Shown piece by piece: positions 29,295 through 49,433 of a stretch of 64,000 nucleotides of DNA (its first letter is position 1; every line of letters begins with the position of its first letter). The position numbers and the translations under genes are program-made. Origin of the DNA: an uncultured Gemmatimonadaceae bacterium (GTDB lineage Bacteria; Gemmatimonadota; Gemmatimonadetes; Gemmatimonadales; Gemmatimonadaceae). The stretch covers positions 32,001 to 96,000 of the forward strand of contig CAWGJO010000027.1 in NCBI GenBank assembly GCA_963822945.1, given 5' to 3'. The notes beneath the pieces were generated by a model. The model had not been told where the DNA came from and made no database searches. It saw only the letters and a list, made by a program, of their open reading frames with translations.

Positions 29295-29387
29295 GCACCC
29301 TACCGGCTGCCGGTGCATGTGACGAACTTTCGCCATTCCCGGCGTGCCCCCACGCGCATCACGCACTCAATCGAGGACCGTGCCGAC

Positions 29388-31314
29388 ATGACCCATCATG
29401 AATCGCGGCGCCGGTGGCAGCCCGGCGTTCGCCTGTCCCTGTTGACGCTGACGCTCGCCGCGCTGGGCCTGGCCCCGGCATCGGCGGCCGCCCAGTCGTC
29501 GCTGTACATGCCCCGCGCCATCACCCAGACCTACCGGAACGGCACGCGGTCCATGGACGGCCTGCCCGGCGCCAAGTACTGGCAGAATCGCGGCCGGTAC
29601 GCGATCACGATCTCCACCGATGCCCCCGGATCGCCGGGTGTCGGGCACCGAGCAGATCGTTTACGTGAACAACAGCCCCGACACACTCCGGGTGCTCGTG
29701 ATCAAGCTGTTCCCCAACTATCACAGGCCCGGCGCTCCTCGCGACGGCGGCGCGTCTGGAGACTTCCTCACCTCCGGCGTCCACATCCGCTCGTTCGCGG
29801 TGAACGGCACGGCGACGACAGTGGGACGACGATCCCGCGCTACTTCACCTGGCAGCCGGTGAGGCTGCCCACCGCGCTGGCCCCGCACGACTCCGTGCGC
29901 CTGGCCTTCGCTGGTACTACGACCTCTCCAAGCGGCCGGGCCGCGAAGGTGTCATCGATTCCACCAGGTTCTACATCGCGTACTTCTATCCCCGCGTCGC
30001 CGTCTACGACGACTACAACGGGTGGGATACGATGGACCACCGGGCCACGAGTTCTACAGCGACTTCAACGACTACGACGTCTCGGTCAACGTGCCGAAGA
30101 ACTTCGTGGTCTGGGGTACCGGCACGCTCACCAACGCCGAGCAGCTGCTGCAGCCCGGCCCGCTGGCCCGCTTCAACGGCGTCGTTCAGCATCGATTCGA
30201 CAGTGCACGTGGCCACCGGTACCCAGATCCACGACGGAAAGATCACCGCGCAGGCGGCGATGAACAGCTGGCACTTCACGGCGAACGACATCCCCGACAT
30301 GGCGTTCGGACTGAGCGACCACTACGACTGGGATGCAGCGAGCGTGGTGGTGGACGACGCCGCGCATCGGCGTGCCAGCATCCAGGCGGCGTATAAGGAT
30401 GCCGCCTAGGATTTCCACTAGATGGTGAAGTTCGGCCGGCACTCGCTGGATTACCTGTCGCACGACTGGCCGGGCGTGCCCTATCCCTACGAGAAGACCA
30501 CCGAGTTCCAGGGGGGGGCCGACATGGAATACCCGATGATGGTGAACGACAAGTCTACCCCGACCCGGCGTTCTCGAATTCGTCGCCGCGCACGAGATCG
30601 CGCACACCTACATGCCGTTCTACATGGGCATCAACGAAACCCGGTACGGGTTCATGGATGAGGGATGGGCCACGACCTTCGAATACCTGATCAACCAGCG
30701 GGACATGGGGCCGGCACAGGCAGCGACGCTCTTCAAGCAGTTCCGCGTCAATGGCTGGACCCGCGATCCCTCGCCGCTGGAGGATCTGCCGATCGTCACG
30801 CCAGGAGACATCCTCAAGGGTGCGGCGCTACGGCAACAACGCCTACGGCAAGCCCGCCCTCGGCTACCTCGCGATGAAGGACCTGCTCGGCGACGACATG
30901 TTCCGGGAGTGCCTCCACGCCTTCATGGACCGGTGGCATGGGAAGCATCCCATCCCGTGGGACTTCTTCTACACTTTCAACGATGTCTCAGGGCGGAACC
31001 TCGACTGGTTCTGGAGCAACTGGTTCTTCAGCAACAACTACATCGATCTCGCCGTCAAGGGCGTCAAGAAGTCGGGCAGCGGCTACGCAGTGACGGTCGA
31101 GAACATCGGTGGCATGGTGGCGCCCTTCGACGTGGTGCTCCACTTCACCGACGGGAGCACGCAGCGGACACACGAGACGCCGGCCGTGTGGGAGCGCAAT
31201 CAGAAGCGGACCACGGTGTCCGTCCACTCCGGCAAGAAGCTGCAGTCGGTGGTGCTGGACGGCGGCATCTGGGTGGATGCCAATGCGGCGAACAACACCT
31301 GGACCGTGAAGTAG
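29388..31314 (+). pseudogene. M1 family metallopeptidase with many frameshifts and two in-frame TAGs (pseudogene or assembly error)
   Basis: PGAKYWQN; NNSPDTL; FYSDFNDYDV; MEYPMMVND; HEIAH-x18-E at 30591; NNAYGKPAL; spread over at least 7 frame segments. Confidence 0.8.
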
Positions 31315-31759: not shown

Positions 31760-32533
31760 TCAATGCGCCTGGTCGGGCATCGAGCGTGCGGACCTCGGGG
31801 CCGGCGCCGGTGCGCGCGGTATGCCCACCAACATGGGGGTGCGCGCCTTGTATTCGCTGTACGCCGAACCCAGGTAGTACGCGTGGTCGCGCTCCTCGAG
31901 CATGACCCCGATCAGGATGTACGCGGTGGTTGCGACGGCGAACGCGAATCGCGCCGCTCCCATCGTCGGCGCCGCCCAGAACGCAATGATGAATCCGAGC
32001 ATCAATGGATTCCGGCTGTACCGGTAATACATCCGGGTCACGAACGGCGGGTGCGTGTACTTGCGGCCCCGGAAGTTGAGCCACACCTGCCGCAGGCCGA
32101 ACAGATCGAAGTGGTCGATCATGAAGGTGCCGGTGAGCAGGAACAGCCACCCGAACGCGAACAGGACCCACAGCACGTCGCGTCCCGCCGCCGACTGCAC
32201 GTTCCACACGGTGCCGGGAATCGGACGCCACTGCCAGAACAGGAGATCGAGCAGCAGGCTGGCGATCAGCACATAGGTTGATCGCTCGGCGGCCACCGGA
32301 ACGATCTTCGTCCACCACTGTTTGAACCACCGCCGGGCCATGATGCTGTGCTGCACGGCGAAGGCGGCGAGCAGCAGAGCGTCGATGACGAGCGCCTGGG
32401 CCAGCGGCGTCGTGGCCGCGCCGTCCACGCATTTGGGCACACCGACGCACCCGACGAAGCCGATGGCATAGAGGAAGGTGAGGAAGAACACGGCGTACGC
32501 GAGCGTTCCGTACAACAAGAGAACGGATCCCAT
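31760..32533 (-). CDS. mddA: Methanethiol S-methyltransferase (MddA-like)
   Basis: YAVFFLTFLYAIGFVG; FAVQHSIMAR..FK.WW; ERSTYVL; LFWQWRP; HFDLFGLRQV; AFWAAPTM; TTAYILIG..LEERD. Confidence 0.82.
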   Translation of the reverse strand: MGSVLLLYGTLAYAVFFLTFLYAIGFVGCVGVPKCVDGAATTPLAQALVIDALLLAAFAVQHSIMARRWFKQWWTKIVPVAAERSTYVLIASLLLDLLFWQWRPIPGTVWNVQSAAGRDVLWVLFAFGWLFLLTGTFMIDHFDLFGLRQVWLNFRGRKYTHPPFVTRMYYRYSRNPLMLGFIIAFWAAPTMGAARFAFAVATTAYILIGVMLEERDHAYYLGSAYSEYKARTPMLVGIPRAPAPAPRSARSMPDQAH

Positions 32534-38250: not shown

Positions 38251-39915
38251 TCAGAACCGGTAGCTCACCGACATGAAGTTCTGCGAGTTGTGGAATGCGC
38301 CGCCCATCTCGCGATACACCGACAGCATCAGGTACACGTTCCGCCCCACGGCCCAGTCGGCGTCGAAGCTGCTCCAGGTGGTGCGCGTCGAACCCAGTCC
38401 CATGCCGAGCATCGTGGCGTTGGACGTCCGGAGCCCGCCGGTGGCCTCGAGGTGCACGAGATTGAACGGGTTGATCTCAAGCGAGGCCGACTGCAGGTCG
38501 CCGCTGGAGAGCTGGCCGGTGTAGTGCGTGTCGCGGAGATGGGCGCCGAGGTCGATGGCGGTGAGCCGCATGAGGCTCACGGAGCCGGTGTACGACTGGG
38601 CGGTGCCGGCCGGGCCGCCGCTCGTGGTGCGCGCCTCGCCACTCAGCCGGAAGCGTCCCCGCAGGTTGAGGGTCGCGCCGCCCCACATGCCCTGCCGGAA
38701 GCTGTTGTCGAACACCGTCTCGGGATTCACGAAGTCGCGGTACAGGAGCACGTTCCGCCGGTTGTCGACCCCGCCGTTGAGACTGAGCGCGTCGGTGATC
38801 GTGAACTGGAAGTTGGCGAACGTCGACGTGGGCGTGGCCGCGGCGTGTTCCTGCGCCGCCTTCCACCCGCGATTGATGTCCAGTTCCTGCGTGACGTACG
38901 CCGTGAACCGCGACGATATCACCATCGCCGTGGCGTACGTGAATTCGCGGTCGATCTGGCCCAGAGTGTACGCGCCGACCCCGCCCACGGTGAACGACCA
39001 CACGGGCAGGTGCATCGACACGTTGTGCCACTGCACGTATGCCCCGTACTCGCGCGTGGAGTCGGTGAACCCGAAGTTGTACCAGCTCGGCTGCAGTCCG
39101 CCGAATGCGCCGACGCTCCAGCGCGGGTGGGCGACGTCGACCGCCACGCCGTCGAACAGCCCCACCGAACTGCTGGTGGTGGAGAACTGGCGGCCGATGG
39201 TGACCGTCGTCGCGCTCCCCAGGGGATTCCACTGCAGCGCCGCCTTGTACACCCGCGTCACGTTGAGCGGGTAGGTGGGAGCAGGATGGAGGCTGTCCGG
39301 CGGCTGCATGATCGAGCGCTGGGCGCGGACGTCGACCGCGATCCCCACCGGCGAGTCGCCCAGGTGCGTGCCGTCGAGGCGCAGGTCGAGCGCCGGCTGC
39401 GTGACCACGCCGGCCGGCCCGGTGCCGGGATCGACCATCAGGTAGCGGACCCCGAGGCGGCCGCGAAGCCGGTTGGCCGGTCGTCGGGTGAGGCCGGCGC
39501 TCGAGCGCTCGGGAAGCGTCGCCGTCGGCGTGGCCGCGACGGCCTCCACCACCGGCGCGAAGCGGGCCGAGTCGCCGGTGGCGACGGTGAGCGACGACGC
39601 GCGCACGATCGTGCACGCGGCACTGCTCGACGAGATGTACTGGACGGCCAGCTCGGCGACGAACGTCGTGTCGCGCAGCACCGTCAGATGCGCGCCCTGT
39701 TTGAGGCCGGCGCGCGTACCGGCGTCGAGGTACACCGTCGGGCCGCTGATGTAGGTCACGTGCGCCCAGGCGGTGGTCGAGTCGGCCCCGGGCGCCGCCG
39801 CCGGCGTCCGCGCGGCCGCTGGCCCGGTGACCGCCTTCTGGGCAGCCGCGGGAACACTCGCGCTGACGATGGCGAATGCCATCACAGCCAGCGGTACTCG
39901 GCGCATGGTCATCAT
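38251..39915 (-). CDS. Outer-membrane beta-barrel (putative cytochrome-associated porin) with small N-terminal beta domain
   Basis: Signal peptide; alternating amphipathic strands; C-terminal FMSVSYRF; ATGA overlap with the cytochrome gene. Confidence 0.8.
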   Translation of the reverse strand: MMTMRRVPLAVMAFAIVSASVPAAAQKAVTGPAAARTPAAAPGADSTTAWAHVTYISGPTVYLDAGTRAGLKQGAHLTVLRDTTFVAELAVQYISSSSAACTIVRASSLTVATGDSARFAPVVEAVAATPTATLPERSSAGLTRRPANRLRGRLGVRYLMVDPGTGPAGVVTQPALDLRLDGTHLGDSPVGIAVDVRAQRSIMQPPDSLHPAPTYPLNVTRVYKAALQWNPLGSATTVTIGRQFSTTSSSVGLFDGVAVDVAHPRWSVGAFGGLQPSWYNFGFTDSTREYGAYVQWHNVSMHLPVWSFTVGGVGAYTLGQIDREFTYATAMVISSRFTAYVTQELDINRGWKAAQEHAAATPTSTFANFQFTITDALSLNGGVDNRRNVLLYRDFVNPETVFDNSFRQGMWGGATLNLRGRFRLSGEARTTSGGPAGTAQSYTGSVSLMRLTAIDLGAHLRDTHYTGQLSSGDLQSASLEINPFNLVHLEATGGLRTSNATMLGMGLGSTRTTWSSFDADWAVGRNVYLMLSVYREMGGAFHNSQNFMSVSYRF

Positions 39916-41618
39916 CCCGACCTCCCTCTCGGGTGGCACGAATAGCAGTGGGCCGCATCGTACACGTAGCCGGACACGCCGCCATGATGCGAGTCGGTCG
40001 TGCTCTTGCCGTGGCAGCCGCCGCTCATGCAGGTGAACGCCGCGTAGTTCGACGGCGAGGTGTGGCAATCGGAGCACTGGTTCCAACGACCCTTGTGGGT
40101 GCCGGAGTAGATCGGGAAGAAGCTGTTGTCGTGGTCGAAGGTGGCTCCTGCCCAGGTGGTCGTCGTATGGCACTGTTCGCACGTCTGTCCGAATCCGGCG
40201 GCGGCGTGCGCCGGATTGTTCGTGCCGTTGTAGTCGGCCAGGTGGCAGGACACGCAGGTAGTCGGCTTGCCCTTGTACACGCCGTCACCGTGGCAGGCGG
40301 CGCAGGCAACGCTCACATGCGCGCCCGTGAGCGGGAACGCCGTGTTGTTGTGGTTGAACGTCGCGCTCGTCCAGTTCGTCGTGCTGTGGCACGTTTCGCA
40401 CGTGGTCGGGAAACCGGCCGCCACGTGGCCCGGGTTGGTCGTGGCGTTGTACTCGGTCTGATGGCACGATACGCAGAGCGTGGACTTGCCCTTGTACACG
40501 CCGTCGCCGTGGCAGGCGTTGCAGGCCACGGCCTGGTGCGCCCCGGTGAGCGGGAAGCTGGTCGTGCTGTGGTTGAACGTCGCGCTCGTCCAGTTGGTCG
40601 TGCTATGGCAGGTCTCGCAGGTGGTGGCGAAGCCGGCTGCCGCGTGGGGCGGGTCGTTGGTGTTGTTGAAGTCGGTCTGGTGGCACGACACGCAGAGCGT
40701 GGACTTGCCCTTGTACACGCCGTCGCCGTGGCAACTCTGACAGCTCGTGGTCGCGTGCACGCCGGTGAGCGGAAAGTTCGTGGCGTTGTGATCGAACGTC
40801 GCGCTCGTCCAGTTGGTCGTGCTGTGGCAGGTCTCGCACGTGGTCGGGAATCCCGAGGCGGCGTGCGGCGGGTTCGTGGTCCCGTTGTACTCCGGCTGGT
40901 GGCACGACACGCACAACTTCGACTTGCCCTTGTAGACGCCGTCGCCGTGGCAGGCGGCGCACGCGGTGGCCAGGTGGGCTCCGGTGAGCGGGAACCCGGT
41001 CAGGTTGTGATCGAAGCTCGCCCCGTGCCAGTTGGTCTCGCTGTGGCACTCGGTGCACACCTGCGGAAAGCCGCCGCCCACGTGGTCGGGGTTCTTCGCG
41101 TTCCGATAGTCGGTGGCGTGGCACCCGAAGCACATCGTTGGGCGGTTGGCGTACTGCGTCTGGCCGGGCGCCGACGGCAGATGGCAGTCCTCGCATGCGG
41201 CAATGGCGTGCGCACCGCGCAGTGGGAAGCGGGTGAGGTCGTGCATCCGGCGCATCGCGGCCGGGTCGACGAAGCTGCGTGTCGTGTGGCAGCGCGAGCA
41301 CTGGTTGCCGAACTCGCCGTGGTGCACGTCGGTGTGGCACGACGCGCAGGCCGTGGACGTGTTGGCGAAGTCGAGCGTGCGATGGCACGACGTGCACGGC
41401 GCCTTCTGATGCGCTCCCTCGAGCGGGAACACCCCCGGCGCGTGGCGGAAGTCCTTGCTGATCGCCACGGGCTTCCAGCCGTCGGCCCGGTGGCACATGC
41501 TGCAGGCGCCGATCGTGGGGCCGTGCGGGTTGTCGCCGCTCTGGGCGGCGGCGGCCGGCGCGGAGAGCGCCAACACGGCCAGCGCCAGCAGCCAGCGGGA
41601 AGCAGGGGGGAGCTTCAT
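39912..41618 (-). CDS. Multiheme cytochrome c: 21 CxxCH plus one Cx4CH
   Basis: Motifs counted by hand; Sec signal (..APAAAA|Q); repeated FDH..FPLTGAH triheme units. Confidence 0.95.
   Translation of the reverse strand: MKLPPASRWLLALAVLALSAPAAAAQSGDNPHGPTIGACSMCHRADGWKPVAISKDFRHAPGVFPLEGAHQKAPCTSCHRTLDFANTSTACASCHTDVHHGEFGNQCSRCHTTRSFVDPAAMRRMHDLTRFPLRGAHAIAACEDCHLPSAPGQTQYANRPTMCFGCHATDYRNAKNPDHVGGGFPQVCTECHSETNWHGASFDHNLTGFPLTGAHLATACAACHGDGVYKGKSKLCVSCHQPEYNGTTNPPHAASGFPTTCETCHSTTNWTSATFDHNATNFPLTGVHATTSCQSCHGDGVYKGKSTLCVSCHQTDFNNTNDPPHAAAGFATTCETCHSTTNWTSATFNHSTTSFPLTGAHQAVACNACHGDGVYKGKSTLCVSCHQTEYNATTNPGHVAAGFPTTCETCHSTTNWTSATFNHNNTAFPLTGAHVSVACAACHGDGVYKGKPTTCVSCHLADYNGTNNPAHAAAGFGQTCEQCHTTTTWAGATFDHDNSFFPIYSGTHKGRWNQCSDCHTSPSNYAAFTCMSGGCHGKSTTDSHHGGVSGYVYDAAHCYSCHPRGRSG
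40140..41015 (-). repeat. Four in-frame 219-bp (73-aa) tandem repeats
   Basis: cttgta(c/g)acgccgtc recurs at 40272, 40491, 40710 and 40929 (period 219). Confidence 0.95.
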
Positions 41619-43621
41619 GGGATTCTCCTCGGCGTGGTACCGCCATGACAGCTGGCGCAGGCGGCGGACAGCGGCCGGTAGATGACGCGGGTCTTGCCGT
41701 TGGCGACGGTCTGCGTCTTATGGCATGCCGCGCAAGCGACCTTGGCGTGGGCGCCCTTGAGCGGGAACGAGGTATCGCGGTCGTGATCGAACTTCGAGGC
41801 CGGCGTGAACGACGCGACGCCGTGGCAGGTGCCGCAGGCGTCCCCTCCCTTGCGGCCGGCGAATTGATCGCCGTGGGGATCGTCCGCCTTGTGGCACGAC
41901 TCGCAGTCGGTGGCGCGTTTCTGCGTGAACGGCAGCTTGGCCACGCCCTTCGGCGCTGCGATGAGCGTCGAGGCGGCGGCGGGACCGCGCATCTCCTCGT
42001 GACAGGCCACGCACGGCGTGGCCCGGTGGGCGCCGTCGAGCGCGAAGCTGAACTGCGCGTGCCGATCGACGTCCACCGTGGACGGGCGGAACGCGCGGGC
42101 GTTGTGGCAGGCGCCGCAGCCATCCTTCATCGGCATCGCCCCGCCCTTGAGGTAGCGCCCGCCGTGGGGATCCACGTGGCAGTCCTGGCACGCGGTCTCC
42201 GGCACCTGCAGCACCACCTTCGCCGGGCCGTACGACGCGGCGCGCTTTGGCAGCGCGGGCAGGCCGGGCCGCGTGAGCCCGTGGCATGCGGCGCACTTGA
42301 TCTTCGCGTGGCGGCCGTCGAGCGGCAGCCGCAGCTTGGCGTGCGCGGCCAGGGAGAAGGTGCTGGGCGTCCAGCCGGCATCGGTGTGGCAGGCCTCGCA
42401 GCTCCCCTTGTCGGGGCGCGACGCGAGCTGGCCGCCGTGCTGGTCGGCATGGCAGTCGGCGCACTTGGCGAACGGCATGGTCAGGCGCGTCACCGTGCCG
42501 GTGGTGGTGTGGCACGAGGCGCATTTCACGCTCGCGTGCTTGCCGGTGAGCGGATACCGGGTGGCGGCGTGCTGCGCGAGCGTGAACGTGGAGGGCGCGA
42601 ATCCCTGCACGCGGTGACAGGCGGCGCAGTCGGCGGGCTTGCCGTTGAGCACGGCCTGCCCGGCGTGCGGGTCCTTGTGGCACGACGCGCAGGTCGCGAA
42701 CGGCGGATCCTTGATCTTGAGGTTCGGTCCGTGGCAGGCGTCGCACTTCACGGTCGCGTGCTTGCCGACCAGCGGATAGCGCGTGGCCGAGTGGTCGAAG
42801 TGCGTCTGCTCGATCACGTGCCAGCCGCGCGTGGTATGGCAGTCGCTGCAGCGGCCGGCCATCCGCGTGCCGTGCGGATTGGCGTGACAGTCGGTGCAGA
42901 GCTTGAACGGCAGCGGCTTGAAGCGGGGGATCAGCTTGCCCTTGGCGTCGGGAACGATGCCGAGCGACTTCGCGAGGTGACACTCGTCGCACTTCACATC
43001 CACGTGCTTGCCGGTGAGCGGGAAGGCGCTGCTGTCGTGCACGAACTTCGGCGCCGGCTTCCACCCCTTCGAGTCGTGGCAGCGGTCGCAACTCTCGCCC
43101 AGCGAACCCTTGTGCACGTCGTCGGCGCGGTGGCAGGAGACGCACGTCGTCTCGAGCCCCACCCACCCGGCGGAACCCGTGCGCTTGGACAGCGCGGCAG
43201 CCTGACCCGTGCGGAACTTCAGCGTATGACAGTCCTCACACTTCGCCTCCGCATGCTTGCCTTCCAGCGCCCATCCGGCGAGCTGATGGTCGAACTTGTC
43301 GCGCGACCCGCCCGGCCAGGCGATGAGCTTGAAGTCCGTGCCCGCGTGGTCCGGATGGCAGCTCGCGCAGTCCTTCTTCTCCACCGTCACGACGCGCGCG
43401 TGATAGCCCCGGTTCTGGTTCAGGAGCCAGCCGATCTCCTTGTGACAGGCGAGGCACATCTGGTTCATCGGCTCGCGGTGCAGGCCGTGGCATTGGGCGC
43501 AGTTCGTCGGCCCTTCCAGGTCGTGATGCGCTCGCGCCAGCGGCCCGGGCGAGATCTGAGCACGCGCTCGCGCCGGCAGGGCCAACAGCAGCAGTCCGCA
43601 CATGAGGAGACATTTCCGCAT
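41615..43621 (-). CDS. Multiheme cytochrome c: 23 CxxCH
   Basis: Motifs counted by hand; signal peptide then QISPGPLARAH; FxH..F/YPLxGKH triheme units. Confidence 0.95.
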   Translation of the reverse strand: MRKCLLMCGLLLLALPARARAQISPGPLARAHHDLEGPTNCAQCHGLHREPMNQMCLACHKEIGWLLNQNRGYHARVVTVEKKDCASCHPDHAGTDFKLIAWPGGSRDKFDHQLAGWALEGKHAEAKCEDCHTLKFRTGQAAALSKRTGSAGWVGLETTCVSCHRADDVHKGSLGESCDRCHDSKGWKPAPKFVHDSSAFPLTGKHVDVKCDECHLAKSLGIVPDAKGKLIPRFKPLPFKLCTDCHANPHGTRMAGRCSDCHTTRGWHVIEQTHFDHSATRYPLVGKHATVKCDACHGPNLKIKDPPFATCASCHKDPHAGQAVLNGKPADCAACHRVQGFAPSTFTLAQHAATRYPLTGKHASVKCASCHTTTGTVTRLTMPFAKCADCHADQHGGQLASRPDKGSCEACHTDAGWTPSTFSLAAHAKLRLPLDGRHAKIKCAACHGLTRPGLPALPKRAASYGPAKVVLQVPETACQDCHVDPHGGRYLKGGAMPMKDGCGACHNARAFRPSTVDVDRHAQFSFALDGAHRATPCVACHEEMRGPAAASTLIAAPKGVAKLPFTQKRATDCESCHKADDPHGDQFAGRKGGDACGTCHGVASFTPASKFDHDRDTSFPLKGAHAKVACAACHKTQTVANGKTRVIYRPLSAACASCHGGTTPRRIP

Positions 43622-45050
43622 TCACCCCGCCCGCGCCTGCGATTGGGGAATCGGCACGTCCTTCTCGACGATGCGGATGCCAAGGCGTTCGAGGAACGCG
43701 TAGGGCGCCTCACCGCCGATGCGAACCACCACATAGTCGGCCGGCAGGATGCGCGACTGCCCCTCGTGCGTGAGCACCGCGACGTCGTCGCGGATCTCCT
43801 GGATCTGGCTCTTGAAGTACGGCGTCACCTTCCCGGACGCGATCGCCCGCTCGATCTTCTCGCGGTTCCGCTCGGCGATGCGCTGGAACGCGTCGCCGCG
43901 GTAGGAGAGCGCCACCGTCGTGCCTTTCTGGTTGGCGAGTCCCAGCGCCGACTCCACGGCGCTGTCGCCCCCGCCCACCACCACCATGCGCTTCCCGGCG
44001 AACGCTTCCATCTCCACGATGTCGTAGAACACGTGGTCCTTTCCCTCACCGGGCACCCCGAGCCGTCGCGGGCTGCCACGCCGCCCCATGGCGAGCACCA
44101 CGCGGCGCGCCAGATACGCGCTGTTCGCCGTCTCCACCCGGAACACGAGCCCCTCGCGCTTCACCTGCTGCACCTTCTCGCCGGTGCGCACGTCGAGGCC
44201 CGTGTCGGCGACGATGGTCTCCCACACCTGGAGCAGCGTTTCCTTGGAGCCGTCGGCCACCCACAGGTCGCCGTACATCGGGATGCGCACCGGCTCGGCC
44301 AGCAGCAGCTTGTGCCGCGGATACTTGCGCACGGTGTCGGACAGCGACCCCTGCTCCAGCACCACGTAGCTGAGGCCGGCGCGCAGCGCTTCGAGCCCGG
44401 CGCTCAGCCCCGCCGGGCCGGAACCGACGATCACCACGTCCACCGCGGCGGCCACCCCGTCGGCGCGCCGGCTCCCGGGCCGCAGCGATCGGGCCACGTG
44501 CTCCATGGCCATCTTGCCTTCGTTGACCGCGTTCTTGATCAGCCCGCGGCCGCCGAGTTCGCCCACGATGTACAGGCCCGGCACGTTGGTCTGGAAGTTC
44601 TCGTCGAGCAACGGCACGGTCACGCGGTTGACCGCGGCGCCGCGTGTCACGAGGATCGCCCCCACCGGGCATCCGCGCACGCACTCCCCATGTCCCTTGC
44701 ACAGCGCGTCGTCCACCACGGCCAGCTTGCCGCGCAGCGTGATGGCGCCCGGTTCCGGACAGGCGCCCACGCAGGTGCCGCATCCCACGCACATGTCGGC
44801 GCGCACGAGCGCCTTGGGGTCGCCGGTCGCCTCCGCCGCCGCTTTCGCCACGGGCGCCCGCACCATCTCGAACACCTGCATCGGCGCGCCGCACTTGGGA
44901 CAGGAGGCCGCGTCGGCGAGAACGGGGGCCCGGCAGCGCGGGCAGGGCACGCGGCCGCGGCTTGGCCGACGCCGGCGGCTTGGTCGCCCGCAGGTGCCAG
45001 AGAATGGCCAGCAGCGTGATGCCGAAAAAGGCGATCGTGGTCGTCGACAT
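43622..45050 (-). CDS. Membrane-anchored Zn-ribbon / 2x[Fe-S] / FAD-NAD(P)H oxidoreductase, frameshift near 44955
   Basis: N-terminal TM; CPRC-x10-CPKC; CVGCGTCVGACP; CKGHGECVRGCP; TNVPGLYIVGE; VIVGSGPAG; LAMGRRG; VVGGGDSAVE; SYRG. Confidence 0.9.
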
Positions 45051-45055
45051 GCGCG

Positions 45056-45943
45056 CTATCGGAACCAGGTGGCGCCCACGGCGACCACGACCACGACGTG
45101 GATCACCACCGCGACCAACGCGGTCAGGGCAAAGGGACGGTGGGCCACGTGCCAGTAGCGGAACACGCGGTGCGTGGCGTTGAGCATGCGCGACTGCTGC
45201 TCGAGCTTGAGTTCGAGCGTGGCCAGCCGCAGTGCTTCACGAAGCTGCTTCTCGTCGAGGCGGTGGTTACGGGGAGTCAGCGCCACCCAGCGCGCCCGCA
45301 GCTGCCGCATCCGGCGCCACCGGAAGAGATCGGCCGCGACGAGCTGCGCCAACACCCGCAGGGGATTGCCGTCGGCGTCCGAAGTCTGTCCGCCATGCAG
45401 CGTGCTCTCGAGCACCTGGGGTGTGAGCCCGGTGGCCGCCGCCAGCTTCTGGATCAGTTCGCGACGCTGGCCCGCCACCTCGTCGCGCGTCAGCTCGATG
45501 CCGCTCCGCGCGCGGGGGATGCGGGTGTAGAGATAGCGGCCCACGATGCCGCTGGCGATCACGATCATCATGGCCAGCAGGCCGAGGCCGATCACGCCGT
45601 CGGAGCGCCAGGCCGCGTGAATGGCGAGCAGCAGAGGGAGTGCGAGCGCCGTGGTCACGTGCACATCCAGCCACTTGCCGATGGATCCGGTCCACCGCAA
45701 CGCCTTCCACTTCTTCCGGAGCGGATACAGCCAGAGGAAGACGAAGATCACGAACGCGGCGATGCCGGCGGACTGACCGATGTACCCCGACGGTTGGAGC
45801 CAAGCGCGCCACGGATGGCGGGCCCGGACTTCGAGCGGTGCCGTGTAGAACGGCGCGCCGACGATGTTGATGGCGAGCAACGGCAGGCAGATCACGATCA
45901 GCGCGATCGTGCTCTTCCGAAGTCCCGAACTGGCGTCTTTCAT
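45056..45943 (-). CDS. Ferric-reductase/NOX-like di-heme b membrane protein
   Basis: About 5 TMs; two H-x13-H pairs (WLDVH..AIH; WHVAH..VIH); YPLRKK; SGIVGRYLY. Confidence 0.75.
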   Translation of the reverse strand: MKDASSGLRKSTIALIVICLPLLAINIVGAPFYTAPLEVRARHPWRAWLQPSGYIGQSAGIAAFVIFVFLWLYPLRKKWKALRWTGSIGKWLDVHVTTALALPLLLAIHAAWRSDGVIGLGLLAMMIVIASGIVGRYLYTRIPRARSGIELTRDEVAGQRRELIQKLAAATGLTPQVLESTLHGGQTSDADGNPLRVLAQLVAADLFRWRRMRQLRARWVALTPRNHRLDEKQLREALRLATLELKLEQQSRMLNATHRVFRYWHVAHRPFALTALVAVVIHVVVVVAVGATWFR

Positions 45944-46126
45944 TTGCCCGGCTGGTGGGAGCGCCGGGCGAGGAGTGCGGAGGGCATGCCTCGGGCTTGC
46001 TTTGGGGGGAGTTGGCGTGCTTTGCAAAGCGGCGGCTTCGCAGCTTCGAGAATTCAGTACACGCGTCAACCGTTCTTGCTCCAAACGCGCGAACAATCGC
46101 GCTCGCAACACCGAACAAACGCCTCA

Positions 46127-46145
46127 TGTGACGCGCATCGTCACA
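46127..46145. promoter_or_regulatory. Perfect palindrome TGTGACG-N5-CGTCACA, candidate TF site
   Basis: Lies in the divergent intergenic region upstream of the cytochrome operon. Confidence 0.45.
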
Positions 46146-46373: not shown

Positions 46374-49300
46374 GTGCTGCTCATTCTCGCCTCCGCCTTC
46401 GTCCTGTCCGGCGCCGCCGGCCTCATCTACGAAACCATCTGGACGCGGTACCTGAGCCTGTTCGTCGGCCATGCCGCCTACGCCCAGATCATCGTCCTCA
46501 TCATCTTCCTGGGCGGCATGTCGCTCGGGGCGTTCGCGGTCGGGAAGCGGTCGTCCCGTCTGCGACAACCGCTGCTCTGGTATGCCGGTGTCGAGTTCGC
46601 GGTGGGCGCCATCGCGTTCCTGTTCCACGGCATCTTCGTGGGCACCACCAACTTCGCGTACGCCCACCTCTTTCCCCACCTGGCCGGCGGCGTCGGCAGC
46701 GTCGGCGTCATGGCGGTGCAGTGGTCGCTGGCCGCGCTGCTCATCCTCCCGCAGTCGGTGCTGCTCGGCGCCACCTTTCCACTCATGAGCGCCGGCGCCG
46801 TGCGCCTCGTCCGCGCCGAACCGGGACGGGTGCTGGGCCTGCTCTACTTCACGAACAGCATCGGCGCGGCAGCCGGCGCCCTGATCGCCGGCTTCTACCT
46901 CATCGGCGCCTTCGGGCTGCCGGGCACGCTGCTGGCCGCGGGAACGCTCAACTTCCTCGTTGCCGCCGGGGTCACGGTCGCCTCACGCGCCTTCTACGCG
47001 GCCGGCGACCCGGACGCCGAACCGCTCCCGCCTCCGCTCGAACAGAGCGACACCCGGCCTGCCGGAGTGGCGGATCCTCCTCGTCGTCAGCTTCGGCACC
47101 GCGCTCGCGTCGTTCGTCTACGAGATCGCCTGGATTCGCATGCTGTCGCTGGTGCTGGGGTCCGCCACGCACTCCTTCGAACTCATGCTTTCGGCGTTCG
47201 TGCTCGGCATCGCGCTCGGGGCCTACTGGATCCGCGGGCGCGCCGACGCGATGGAACGGCCGATGTACGCACTGGGGATGGTGCAATGGATCATGGGCGC
47301 GCTGGCCGTCGCTACCCTGCCGCTGTACATGATGTCGTTCGAATGGATGGCCGCCCTGCTCCACATGTTCGGCCGCACCGACGCCGGCTACGACGGGTTC
47401 GTGGTGTCGCGCTACCTCATCTGCCTGGCGATCATGCTCCCGGCCACCTTCTGCGCCGGGATCACGCTTCCCCTCATCACCAAGGTCCTGATCCGGCGCG
47501 GCGCCGGCGAACGCGCCATCGGTGTGGTCTACGGGGTCAACACGCTCGGCTCGATTGCCGGGGTGATCGTCGCCGGCCTGATCCTGATGCCGGTGCTGGG
47601 ACTCAAGCTGCTGCTGATGAGCGGTGCGGTGGTCGACATCGCGCTCGGCGTGATGCTGCTCCACCCGAACGTGCTCGGCGACGACCAGGGGGCGCGGCGC
47701 CGGTTCGGCTACCTCTTCGCCACCGTCGCCCTGCTGCTGTTCAACGGGATCTTCGTGCGCTTCGACCGGTGGAAGCTCTCCAGCGGCGTGTTCCGGGTGG
47801 GCCTGCTGCCCACGGCCGACATGTTCTCATTCCCCTTCTATAAGGATGGGCGCACGGCCACGGTGAGCGTGCGCCGCGACCGGTCGAACGGGTACCTCAC
47901 GCTGGCCACCAACGGCAAGCCCGACGCGTCGATGGATCCGTTCTGGGAAGACTCCACGATCGACCCCGGCGGGCTCCATGCCCTGGCCGGGGATCAGGCC
48001 ACGCAGGTGCTGCTCCCGCTCATCGGCCTGGCCCACGCGCCCGACGCGCGCGAGGTCGCGGTCATCGGGCAGGGCTCGGGAATGACGTCCAACGTCCTGC
48101 TTGGCAGTCCCCACGTGAAGCAGGTGGTGACGGTGGAGATCGAGCCGCAGATGGTGAACGCCTCGCGCGCCTTCCGCCCCGCCAACCACCGCGTGTTCGA
48201 CGACCCGCGCTCGCGCATCGTGATCGACGACGCCAAAGCGTACTTCGCGTCCTCCGGCCGCAAGTTCGACCTCATCATCTCCGAGCCGTCCAACCCGTGG
48301 GTGAGCGGGGTGTCGGGACTGTTCACCACGGAGTTCTACCACCGGGTGCGAAACAGTCTCACCGCCAACGGCGTGCTCGGCCAGTGGCTGCACCTGTACG
48401 AGATCAACGATTCGCTGGTCACATCGGTGCTCGCCGCCATCGATCGGAATTTCCGGTCGTACCAGGTGTTCTTCACCTCGAACAGCGACATCCTGATTCT
48501 CGCCACCAACCGGTCGGCGCCGCTCGTGCCCGATTGGAACGTGGTGCACTACCCGGGCGTGGCGCACGACGTACGGCGCGCGCCGCCGTTGACGCCCGAA
48601 GCGCTGAACGGCATGCGTCTGGCGGGCCGGAGCCTCCTGCATCCGTACCTGCTGGAGCACGCCCGGGTGAACTCCGACTACTTCCCGGTGCTCGACCTCG
48701 GGGCGGAACGCACGCGGTTCATGCATTCGAATGCCGTGGGGTTGGAGAATCTGGGCAAGGGCACGTTCAACGTGGTGGCCGCGACTGGCGGGGCGGCGCC
48801 AGGAGCTTCGGCACCGAGCCGCTGGCGGTGGCGCCGGAGATTCCCCGCGTGTACGACCTGGCGCTGCAGGTGCGCCTGCGCCGCGTGCTGGCCATGACGC
48901 CGGCCCAGCGCGCCGGCGTGCCGCGCGATACGGCGCTCTCCCACGCCGTGTACCGGGTGTCGCGATTCTACCAGTTGATGGCCGACGGAAAGCCGCCCAC
49001 CAGCTGGCACCGGTGGATGGCGTCGTTCACCGACGCCGAGGGACTGCTGCACGCCGGATCGGCGGGCGTGGCCGACACCGGGTTCTTCCACGCGGTGTAC
49101 GCCTACCTCGACCGGGCGCACGCGCCGTCGGACGCGCGCGCCGCCGTGGATTTCACACACGGGCTGGCCGCGTGGAACTTTCCCCAGGTCTCGCAGGCGG
49201 CCGACACGTTGATCGGCGAGTTCCTGCGCGATTCGCTGCCCTGGATCGGGATCAACGACCTCCGCAACGGCACCGTGGTCGCCCGTTTGAAACTCGGCGA

Positions 49301-49433
49301 CCTGAACGGGGCGCAACGCGCCTTCAAGGCGTTGGCTCCCGCGACGGCCCGGTCCGACTTCACCGCGCAGCTGCTGGCGGCCGACCTGGTCATGCGCCGG
49401 ATCGCCCCTGCCGACACGCTGCCGCCGCCCTGA
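46374..49433 (+). CDS. Fused membrane domain / spermidine-synthase-like SAM-binding protein, frameshifts near 47055 and 48790
   Basis: SGAAGLIYETIWTRYL; LLGATFPLM; NGKPDAS; VIGQGSGMT; VEIEPQMV; DDAK; DLIISEPSNPWVSGVSGLFT. Confidence 0.88.

Follow-up and report, generated by a model that had tools for sequence, protein, structure and literature searches.

A five-gene porin-cytochrome cluster of an uncultured Gemmatimonadaceae bacterium as a candidate NAD(P)H-fed variant of PCC3

Whether cytoplasmic NAD(P)H can feed a porin-cytochrome conduit directly is the question raised by a five-gene cluster found in an uncultured Gemmatimonadaceae bacterium. The genes, here called A to E, lie in the order A-B-C-D-E on the minus strand, from 45943 to 38251, of the stretch analyzed (the window: 64,000 nucleotides, positions 32,001 to 96,000 of contig CAWGJO010000027.1, assembly GCA_963822945.1). 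The source genome is 3.97 Mb, 88% complete, and its proteins match Gemmatimonadota entries. To our knowledge, characterised porin-cytochrome conduits draw on the quinone pool. The initial annotation of the window proposed a trans-envelope wire linked to NAD(P)H, and the anatomy of the cluster together with the tight linkage of its genes across phyla supports such a wire. Its five co-oriented genes were borne out by re-reading of the sequence: 5 nt separate the stop of A from the ATG of B at 45050, 0 nt separate B from C, and both C/D and D/E overlap in ATGA, E starting at 39915. Motif counts likewise returned the 23-heme and 22-heme cytochromes, with 45 c-heme motifs in C and D together. We see a slightly better than even chance that the cluster is a PCC3-type outward conduit from NAD(P)H to the cell surface, in which A and B act like a split NOX or MsrQ-Fre.

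PCC3, as defined in the accessible text of He et al. 2017 (PMC5566968), consists of a porin, extracellular and periplasmic multiheme cytochromes and an inner-membrane protein (IMP) of ~300 aa with SGxxG and two WX3HX13H motifs; it was published there as four genes from Proteobacteria, with an IMP that exchanges electrons with the quinone pool. The same components are found here in the same physical order. A is ~300 aa long with five helices, SGxxG in helix 4 and WX3HX13H in helices 3 and 5; C resembles the periplasmic cytochrome (~21 hemes, low residue/heme ratio), its location being presumed; D is a second large repeat-built cytochrome rich in Thr, Ser, Ala and Gly; and E is an adjacent many-stranded outer-membrane barrel. 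The accessible description of PCC3 of Leptothrix cholodnii gives 24 hemes, 22 hemes and 22 strands, and the numbers here are 23, 22 and 22. The likeness is one of description, not of alignment, and the cluster differs by its fifth gene, the anchored Fe-S flavoprotein B. Proteobacterial PCC3 sequences were absent from the search results, none of the best 80 of 592 stretches being titled Proteobacteria; two Pseudomonadota clusters (300-320 aa, feature score 0.86-0.87) are a mere lead to PCC3 homologues.

A description of the cluster as categorically new was rejected, since the four-gene core is already in print as PCC3; this core is known from genomes, and the flavoprotein partner B is the addition. 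No description of the five-gene form was found in the literature searched, most subscription papers lying outside its reach, nor did that literature mention the flavoprotein partner, its permuted fold or the spread over the phyla named below. Term look-ups in the accessible parts of PMC7399161, PMC6137239, PMC4245776 and PMC6295460 gave no flavoprotein link. The initial annotation knew of no experimental characterisation of this architecture, and PCC3 indeed appears as functionally unverified in the accessible text of two later sources (bioRxiv 10.1101/2025.02.27.639646; Hoover et al. 2023, PMC10734462); the architecture itself is more familiar than supposed, four of its five genes matching published PCC3.

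Gene A (45056..45943, minus strand) encodes a PCC3-type inner-membrane protein of 295 aa, as judged from its sequence, homologue alignment and model. Its motifs are W91-x3-H95-x13-H109, S131-G-x-x-G135 and W264-x3-H268-x13-H282, and the two H-x13-H pairs agree with the di-His-pair membrane protein described initially. The model (pLDDT 92.9) contains five long predicted membrane helices, positioned as He et al. 2017 predict, and a helical insert of ~110 residues between helices 4 and 5 that is probably cytoplasmic. All four His are invariant in the aligned homologues (106/106, at identities down to ~22%), 101 of which keep both WX3HX13H motifs and 105 SGxxG. A would be a di-heme b protein; going by the basic loops after helices 2 and 4 (positive-inside rule), H95/H268 would face the cytoplasmic side of the membrane and H109/H282 the opposite side.

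A Pfam scan of the 106 homologues gave Ferric_reduct (PF01794) in 25, with a best E of 1.5e-4, and cytochrome b561 in 22, all weak and below cut-off. In fold comparisons the model matched STEAP4 (Z 8.0) and SpNOX (Z 7.6), level with unrelated bundles; Foldseek with the model returned no match at E <= 0.001, and no genuine match emerged when a sequence profile of A was compared with solved structures. The weak family and fold matches point to the ferric-reductase/cytochrome b561 group, without settling the assignment. Four A-C or A-B fusions in the protein database (P0121-P0124) look like frameshifted gene calls and were dropped as evidence.

Gene B (43622..45050, minus strand), as read from the sequence and its relatives, combines a membrane anchor, a Zn ribbon, two Fe-S motifs and an FAD/NAD(P)H domain, and is frameshifted near 44951. 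The intact 475-aa protein of a relative (G012) was used as reference. The parts of the membrane-anchored FAD/NAD(P)H and Fe-S protein claimed by the initial annotation are present, but they do not form one frame in the window: an extra base near 44951 places the hydrophobic start (45050) and the Fe-S/FAD body (43622-44950) in different reading frames in this assembly. An N-terminal hydrophobic helix occurs in nearly all intact B homologues inspected, and the Zn ribbon in the closest clade only. The second Fe-S motif reads C-x2-H-x2-C-x3-CP, and in 105 of 112 homologues His replaces the second Cys of this motif. In hydrogenases and nitrate reductase, His-ligated or 3Fe-4S clusters are known as sites from which electrons leave for b hemes.

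The nearest solved relatives of the FAD/NAD(P)H part of B are YpdA/Bdr and the ferredoxin-NADP reductases of thioredoxin reductase (TrxR) type (7a76, E 3e-28; 7a7b, E 4e-27), likewise without CxxC. Unlike YpdA/Bdr, B is permuted, membrane-anchored and fused to a ferredoxin, and it falls below the YpdA family cut-off. The permutation is circular: the segment with which the FAD domain normally closes stands ahead of the first Rossmann motif in 98/112 homologues, as judged by motif. A profile of this displaced segment matched the C-terminal tail of four of five disulfide-reductase-family proteins of the genome, above all 40 shuffles each, the fifth, a frameshifted TrxR-like protein on contig C17, giving no signal; a faint second alignment of B to YpdA agrees with the permutation. 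The redox-active CxxC of TrxR was not found in B, the equivalent region of the NADPH domain having been inspected, and invariant Cys are confined to the Fe-S motifs. GGGDSA is kept in 107 and S-Y/H-R in 104 of the 112 homologues, a pattern that we take to be NADPH-type. Thioredoxin reductase was rejected as an assignment, B being without CxxC and scoring 82 bits against a cut-off of 343 (TIGR01292); B also falls outside YpdA/Bdr, with 176 bits against 340 (TIGR04018) and a permuted domain order.

The main evidence that B would work with A is that their linkage outlasts repeated rearrangement of the gene order. Of 401 Gemmatimonadota genomes, 90 gave a match to A and 87 to B (both in 85, A only in 5, B only in 2, neither in 309), so that the two co-occur in 85 of the 92 genomes with either gene. 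Of the five genomes with A only, one (G152) has B adjoining A below the score limit, three carry other A subfamilies and one is represented by a short broken contig; the two B-only matches lie near contig ends. A second set, 301 genomes from the phylum of a Bacteroidales genome, had A in 32 (31 strong) and B-like proteins in 34 (30 full and anchored). All 30 genomes with a full anchored B have A, and 30 of the 31 with a strong A have a full anchored B. Being related, the genomes behind these counts are not independent of one another.

In 40 A-positive Gemmatimonadota loci B lies <=10 kb from A in 40/40 and a barrel is present in 37, the three misses being at contig edges; B is downstream in 9, divergent in 19, after the barrel in 10 and upstream in 2, giving four gene orders. 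For other phyla the best 80 of 592 confirmed stretches were taken, 34 uncut and 46 cut. Every uncut locus (34/34) has B within 10 kb of A, at least 20 hemes and a barrel, in five gene orders, and B is visible in 24 of the cut ones. The gene-neighbourhood search proposed with the initial annotation found the A-B linkage conserved across phyla in several gene orders; Gemmatimonadota, Bacteroidota/Ignavibacteria, Calditrichota, Zixibacteria and Acidobacteriota are among the groups in which the five-gene form was seen. More distant A-like proteins carry fused Fe-S domains (P0125-P0130), or stand beside an NADH-oxidase-like flavoprotein and a ferredoxin or beside a YpdA-like protein of 760-800 aa.

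All five genes, in the order of the window and with their own ccsA, are also carried by plasmid pEMTOL02 of Emticicia oligotrophica DSM 17448 (EMTOL_RS21090-21110). Plasmid searches gave matches only in Emticicia, and this carriage hints at horizontal spread. On the plasmid copy (NC_018749.1, L032:8866-21450) ccsA precedes the cluster, and sigma factor, Rieske, YceI and barrel genes adjoin it.

Gene C (41615..43621, minus strand) encodes a basic (pI 9.0) cytochrome c of 668 aa with 23 CxxCH motifs, 29 aa per heme and, by eye, a signal-peptide-like start. Its heme number is near-constant, 110 of 121 open reading frames (ORFs) that match its N-terminus having 17, 20 or 23, and C would be the periplasm-spanning wire. 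Gene D (39912..41618, minus strand) encodes a 568-aa cytochrome c with 21 CxxCH and one CxxxxCH, built of three-heme repeats of 73 residues and rich in Thr, Ser, Ala, Gly and Asn (T+S+A+G+N fraction 0.46, against 0.35 in C). Inspection by eye showed a signal-peptide-like start and no lipobox in D, which may be a wire that threads the barrel or lies at the surface. Other large cytochrome ORFs in related loci have 8 to 52 hemes, counts that include frameshifted pieces and unrelated neighbours. Neither C nor D gave a sequence match to solved structures. Ccm-type maturation genes, a check suggested with the initial annotation, were found on the same contig as the cluster.

Gene E (38251..39915, minus strand) encodes an outer-membrane beta-barrel according to its model and fold matches, in agreement with the barrel first described. 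The product on record has 554 aa, a C-terminal Phe and no TonB-type plug that could be seen. The model (pLDDT 84.3) shows a small N-terminal beta domain, FlgT_C-like below cut-off (E 4.5e-4), and 22 strands counted from DSSP. Its fold matches are outer-membrane barrels, ~350 residues aligning with 22-stranded transporter barrels; MtrB is one of many matches (rank 28, Z 14.9, rmsd 5.3, 323 aligned). Because the lumen of 22-stranded transporter barrels is wide enough for a plug domain, it is plausible that a heme chain would fit into the modelled lumen of E.

The cluster shares with MtrCAB and OmaB-OmbB-OmcB the logic of a periplasmic cytochrome, a barrel and an outer cytochrome. It differs from them in having no decahemes, 22 strands, no lipoprotein cytochrome that was seen and an entry other than CymA, ImcH or CbcL. 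Membership of the Mtr/Mto/Pio group was rejected, C and D having 23 and 22 hemes and scoring 63 and 29 bits against a cut-off of 192 for TIGR03508; this comparison with a hidden Markov model of the Mtr family bears out the statement that the cytochromes are not MtrA-type decahemes. An MtrB/PioB-family barrel was also rejected: E belongs to no Pfam or NCBIfam family, and no match to such a barrel was obtained for E or for the 31 homologues scanned of 120 listed.

In the mechanism that we favor, NAD(P)H would reduce FAD in B, from which electrons would move one at a time through the two predicted Fe-S centres of B, the second His-ligated or 3Fe-4S, to the inner heme b of A (H95/H268). They would then cross the membrane in A to the outer heme b (H109/H282) and enter the periplasmic wire C with its 23 hemes; D, the 22-heme wire in or on barrel E, would receive them from C and reduce something outside the cell. 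The Fe-S flavoprotein B hints that quinones may have no part in this route. An outward flow of electrons follows the pull of the inside-negative membrane potential and leaves the protons behind in the cell, which spends proton-motive force. Since the wire would spend this force, export of a strong reductant or the dumping of excess NAD(P)H is favored over energy conservation at this step. Possible uses are redox balancing in fermentation or oxygen shortage and the reduction of low-potential acceptors or partner cells.

A and B would in this way resemble a NOX or MsrQ-Fre split into two membrane-bound chains. MsrQ-Fre, SpNOX and STEAP have His pairs on helices 3 and 5, and in them electrons of cytoplasmic NAD(P)H and flavin cross the membrane; A has the two His pairs, 13 residues apart on helices 3 and 5, of the ferric reductase domain. 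On the other hand, the place that Fre or a fused FNR-type domain takes as donor is filled here by a TrxR-fold Fe-S flavoprotein with an anchor of its own, and the acceptor side is a 45-heme wire with a barrel. The fused FNR-type dehydrogenase of NOX is missing, A standing alone beside the TrxR-type B. According to the accessible text on MsrQ (PMC12525009), this protein is reduced by Fre and its heme is too low in potential for quinol donors, yet quinone is bound.

Several observations weigh against the proposed mechanism. Published PCC3 is described with four genes and a quinone-active IMP, in the accessible parts of its source, and MsrQ itself binds quinone in those of PMC12525009. In fold comparisons A gave weak matches (Z ~8, amid unrelated helix bundles), some of them to the quinone-linked superoxide oxidase, cytochrome b6 and FdnI. 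Gene B is broken in this assembly, and the missing lipobox of D leaves its route to the surface unexplained. In G599, the exception in the set from the phylum of the Bacteroidales genome, A is truncated and no B or cytochrome gene lies within 9 kb of it, and short A-like proteins at five loci (L079-L082, L087) have no Fe-S or flavoprotein match nearby. Long contigs and strong scores guided the choice of loci, and related genomes do not count as independent cases. Finally, a wire with ~47 hemes that spends proton-motive force is costly, and its acceptor is only conjectured.

The main rival, unlikely in our judgement though the strongest of those considered, is a quinone junction, in which A would be in redox exchange with the quinone pool, while B would serve as a feeder of NAD(P)H:quinone type or a side entry; the wire could run outward from quinol, or inward to quinone from Fe(II), humics or electrodes. 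This is the model of He et al. 2017 for the IMP (PMC5566968, accessible text), and it is consistent with the quinone-linked cytochromes b among the weak fold matches of A, with the cytochrome b561-type Pfam matches in 22/106 A homologues and with the bound quinone that MsrQ carries (PMC12525009, accessible text). PCC3 also occurs in iron oxidisers, and expression of the IMP gene rose with iron-oxidation activity in Sideroxydans CL21, as far as the available part of that source goes (10.1101/2025.02.27.639646). A quinone junction would, however, leave the near-constant adjacency of B and A unexplained. In addition, the His spacing of A corresponds to one heme per membrane face, as needed for crossing, and the genome has separate quinone-type cytochrome modules. 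The initial annotation noted no NapC/NirT, NrfD or Rieske partner; none was found among the five cluster genes, and the quinone-type modules sit elsewhere, on contig C22.

Less probable again is an export of reductant for a non-respiratory job, such as mobilisation of Fe(III) or other metals, detoxification, superoxide production or envelope-protein repair; the true acceptor would then be periplasmic or sit at the outer membrane, and the cytochromes would serve partly as a capacitor. Such a step would not conserve energy, heme-copper oxidases are encoded in the host genome, and the cluster occurs on a plasmid of Emticicia oligotrophica, an aerobe. Ferric-reductase-family proteins are known for jobs of this kind (PMC12525009, accessible text). 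Against this explanation, ~47 hemes per complex would be a poor way to gain iron, and the variable length of the D-type cytochromes fits reaching distant solids. Beside the cluster, neither the window nor the plasmid stretch of Emticicia showed a gene for a siderophore receptor, feo or msrP.

The window as assembled would also agree with a cluster that is decaying in this strain, its frameshift being real and B unanchored or lost, and we hold this to be improbable. The single extra base that splits gene B (44951..44952, no strand assigned) was located by alignment with relatives and by short-read contigs. Seven relatives with the start of B, found by tblastn, have the body on the same contig, and DNA alignment showed the frame kept in six, a 95%-identical relative and five others; compared with these six the window has one extra base near 44951. 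One short-read contig in each of runs X3 and X4 is without a base at 44951/44952, at depth <5 and from other strains. The other four cluster genes are intact, and other genes in the window and in related assemblies are likewise split into frames. The extra base is probably an assembly error and, the short reads coming from other strains, less probably a strain-private mutation. The four runs compared over the region are soil and salt-marsh metagenomes, small-share runs having been left out of the habitat reading.

An inward wire that reduces NAD(P)+ directly with outside electrons, the reverse running allowed by the initial annotation, is very unlikely on energetic grounds: heme wires are reversible (PMC10734462, accessible text) and TrxR-type ferredoxin-NADP reductases are among the relatives of B, but the transfer would run uphill, against the membrane potential, onto an acceptor at -320 mV. 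It would require a donor at ~-450 mV or lower (calculated from textbook values), and few natural minerals lie that low.

If the conduit is fed straight from NAD(P)H, it would represent a different kind of extracellular electron transfer and the published PCC3 model would be revised. Gemmatimonadota, Ignavibacteria, Calditrichota, Zixibacteria and Thermoanaerobaculia, abundant soil and sediment lineages, would be implicated in metal, humic and interspecies electron exchange, and carriers would make up ~1/5 of the Gemmatimonadota genomes searched and ~1/10 of the Bacteroidota sample. A broader proposal, that quinone-independent extracellular electron transfer is widespread in Gram-negative bacteria, with a split NOX-like module feeding NAD(P)H electrons into a 40-80-heme wire that, aided by the membrane potential, delivers them at potentials far below those of quinol-fed conduits, is tentative and seems to us rather doubtful; were it true, low-potential minerals and humics could be reduced and methanogenic partners fed. 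One Lentimicrobium genome, which was confined to a methanogenic culture that depends on conductive particles, encodes neighbouring cytochromes with 61 and 20 hemes and a porin, left unassigned by its authors in the accessible text (PMC13013709); its heme counts fit the cluster family, the comparison being one of counts, not of sequence. The plasmid copy of Emticicia oligotrophica DSM 17448 makes the system testable in a cultured strain.

A related arrangement is found in PCC4 and in the porin-less IMP clusters of He et al. 2017 (section 16, Table S6), in which an H-x13-H membrane protein lies beside cytochromes and a redox protein. Four PCC4-like loci (L078, L173-L175) have an IMP of a second subfamily, cytochromes with 3-10 hemes, a cNMP-ferredoxin protein and a flavoprotein of YpdA-like type that also contains FHA and 2Fe-2S domains. 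The flavoprotein of the second-subfamily loci has 793-797 aa, and these sizes match the 796-805 aa of the 'other redox protein' of Table S6. In the text and supplements of that paper apart from Supplementary Figure 4 (PMC5566968), this protein is not named as a flavoprotein; the association of a redox protein with the IMP was glimpsed by these authors, the identity of that protein being unstated in the readable parts. The PCC4-like loci differ from the present cluster in their 3-10-heme cytochromes, in the cNMP, FHA and 2Fe-2S add-ons and in a flavoprotein that is not anchored like B. Five further loci (L169-L171, L176, L178) encode proteins of 830-844 aa that join the permuted flavin domain to a membrane region of many helices and to a C-terminal ferredoxin; neither A nor cytochromes lie near them. 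Among the loci related to the cluster, L103 has a single 48-heme ORF that starts like C, possibly a C-D fusion, and the barrel and outer-cytochrome genes are duplicated in L057 and L069.

Upstream of gene A, alignment of upstream regions revealed a degenerate copy of the palindrome GTGA-N6-TCAC (46128..46141, approximate, minus strand). At the corresponding alignment position 7 of 9 upstream regions have the exact palindrome, for which the genome background is ~0.01 per 400 bp, the window, L016-L021 and L027 being among the loci compared; its left half is degenerate in the window and in G012. A promoter-like block, CGCGTTTGGA ... GTGTA (window ~46060-46090, minus strand), is conserved ~45 bases downstream of the palindrome. 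The palindrome, which we take to be CRP/FNR-like, suggests that the cluster may be controlled by a regulator of the CRP/FNR family.

Elsewhere in the window, a peptidase-like gene (29313-31314) and a fused transporter/spermidine-synthase-like gene (46374-49433) are split over several frames, which suggests indel errors in the assembly. The host genome encodes other large cytochromes. Two quinone-type modules lie at C22:75755-85503 (L028), the first with an 11-heme cytochrome, a cytochrome b561 and a 14-heme cytochrome, and the second with a cytochrome b fused to nine hemes followed by a NapC/NirT-type 21-heme protein. Multiheme cytochromes with 8, 8 and 16 hemes stand in a row at C26:12861-19332, and 13-heme and 10-heme cytochromes are found at C21:272964-274625 and C21:324944-328000; several of the large cytochromes of C26 and C21 have lipoprotein-like starts.

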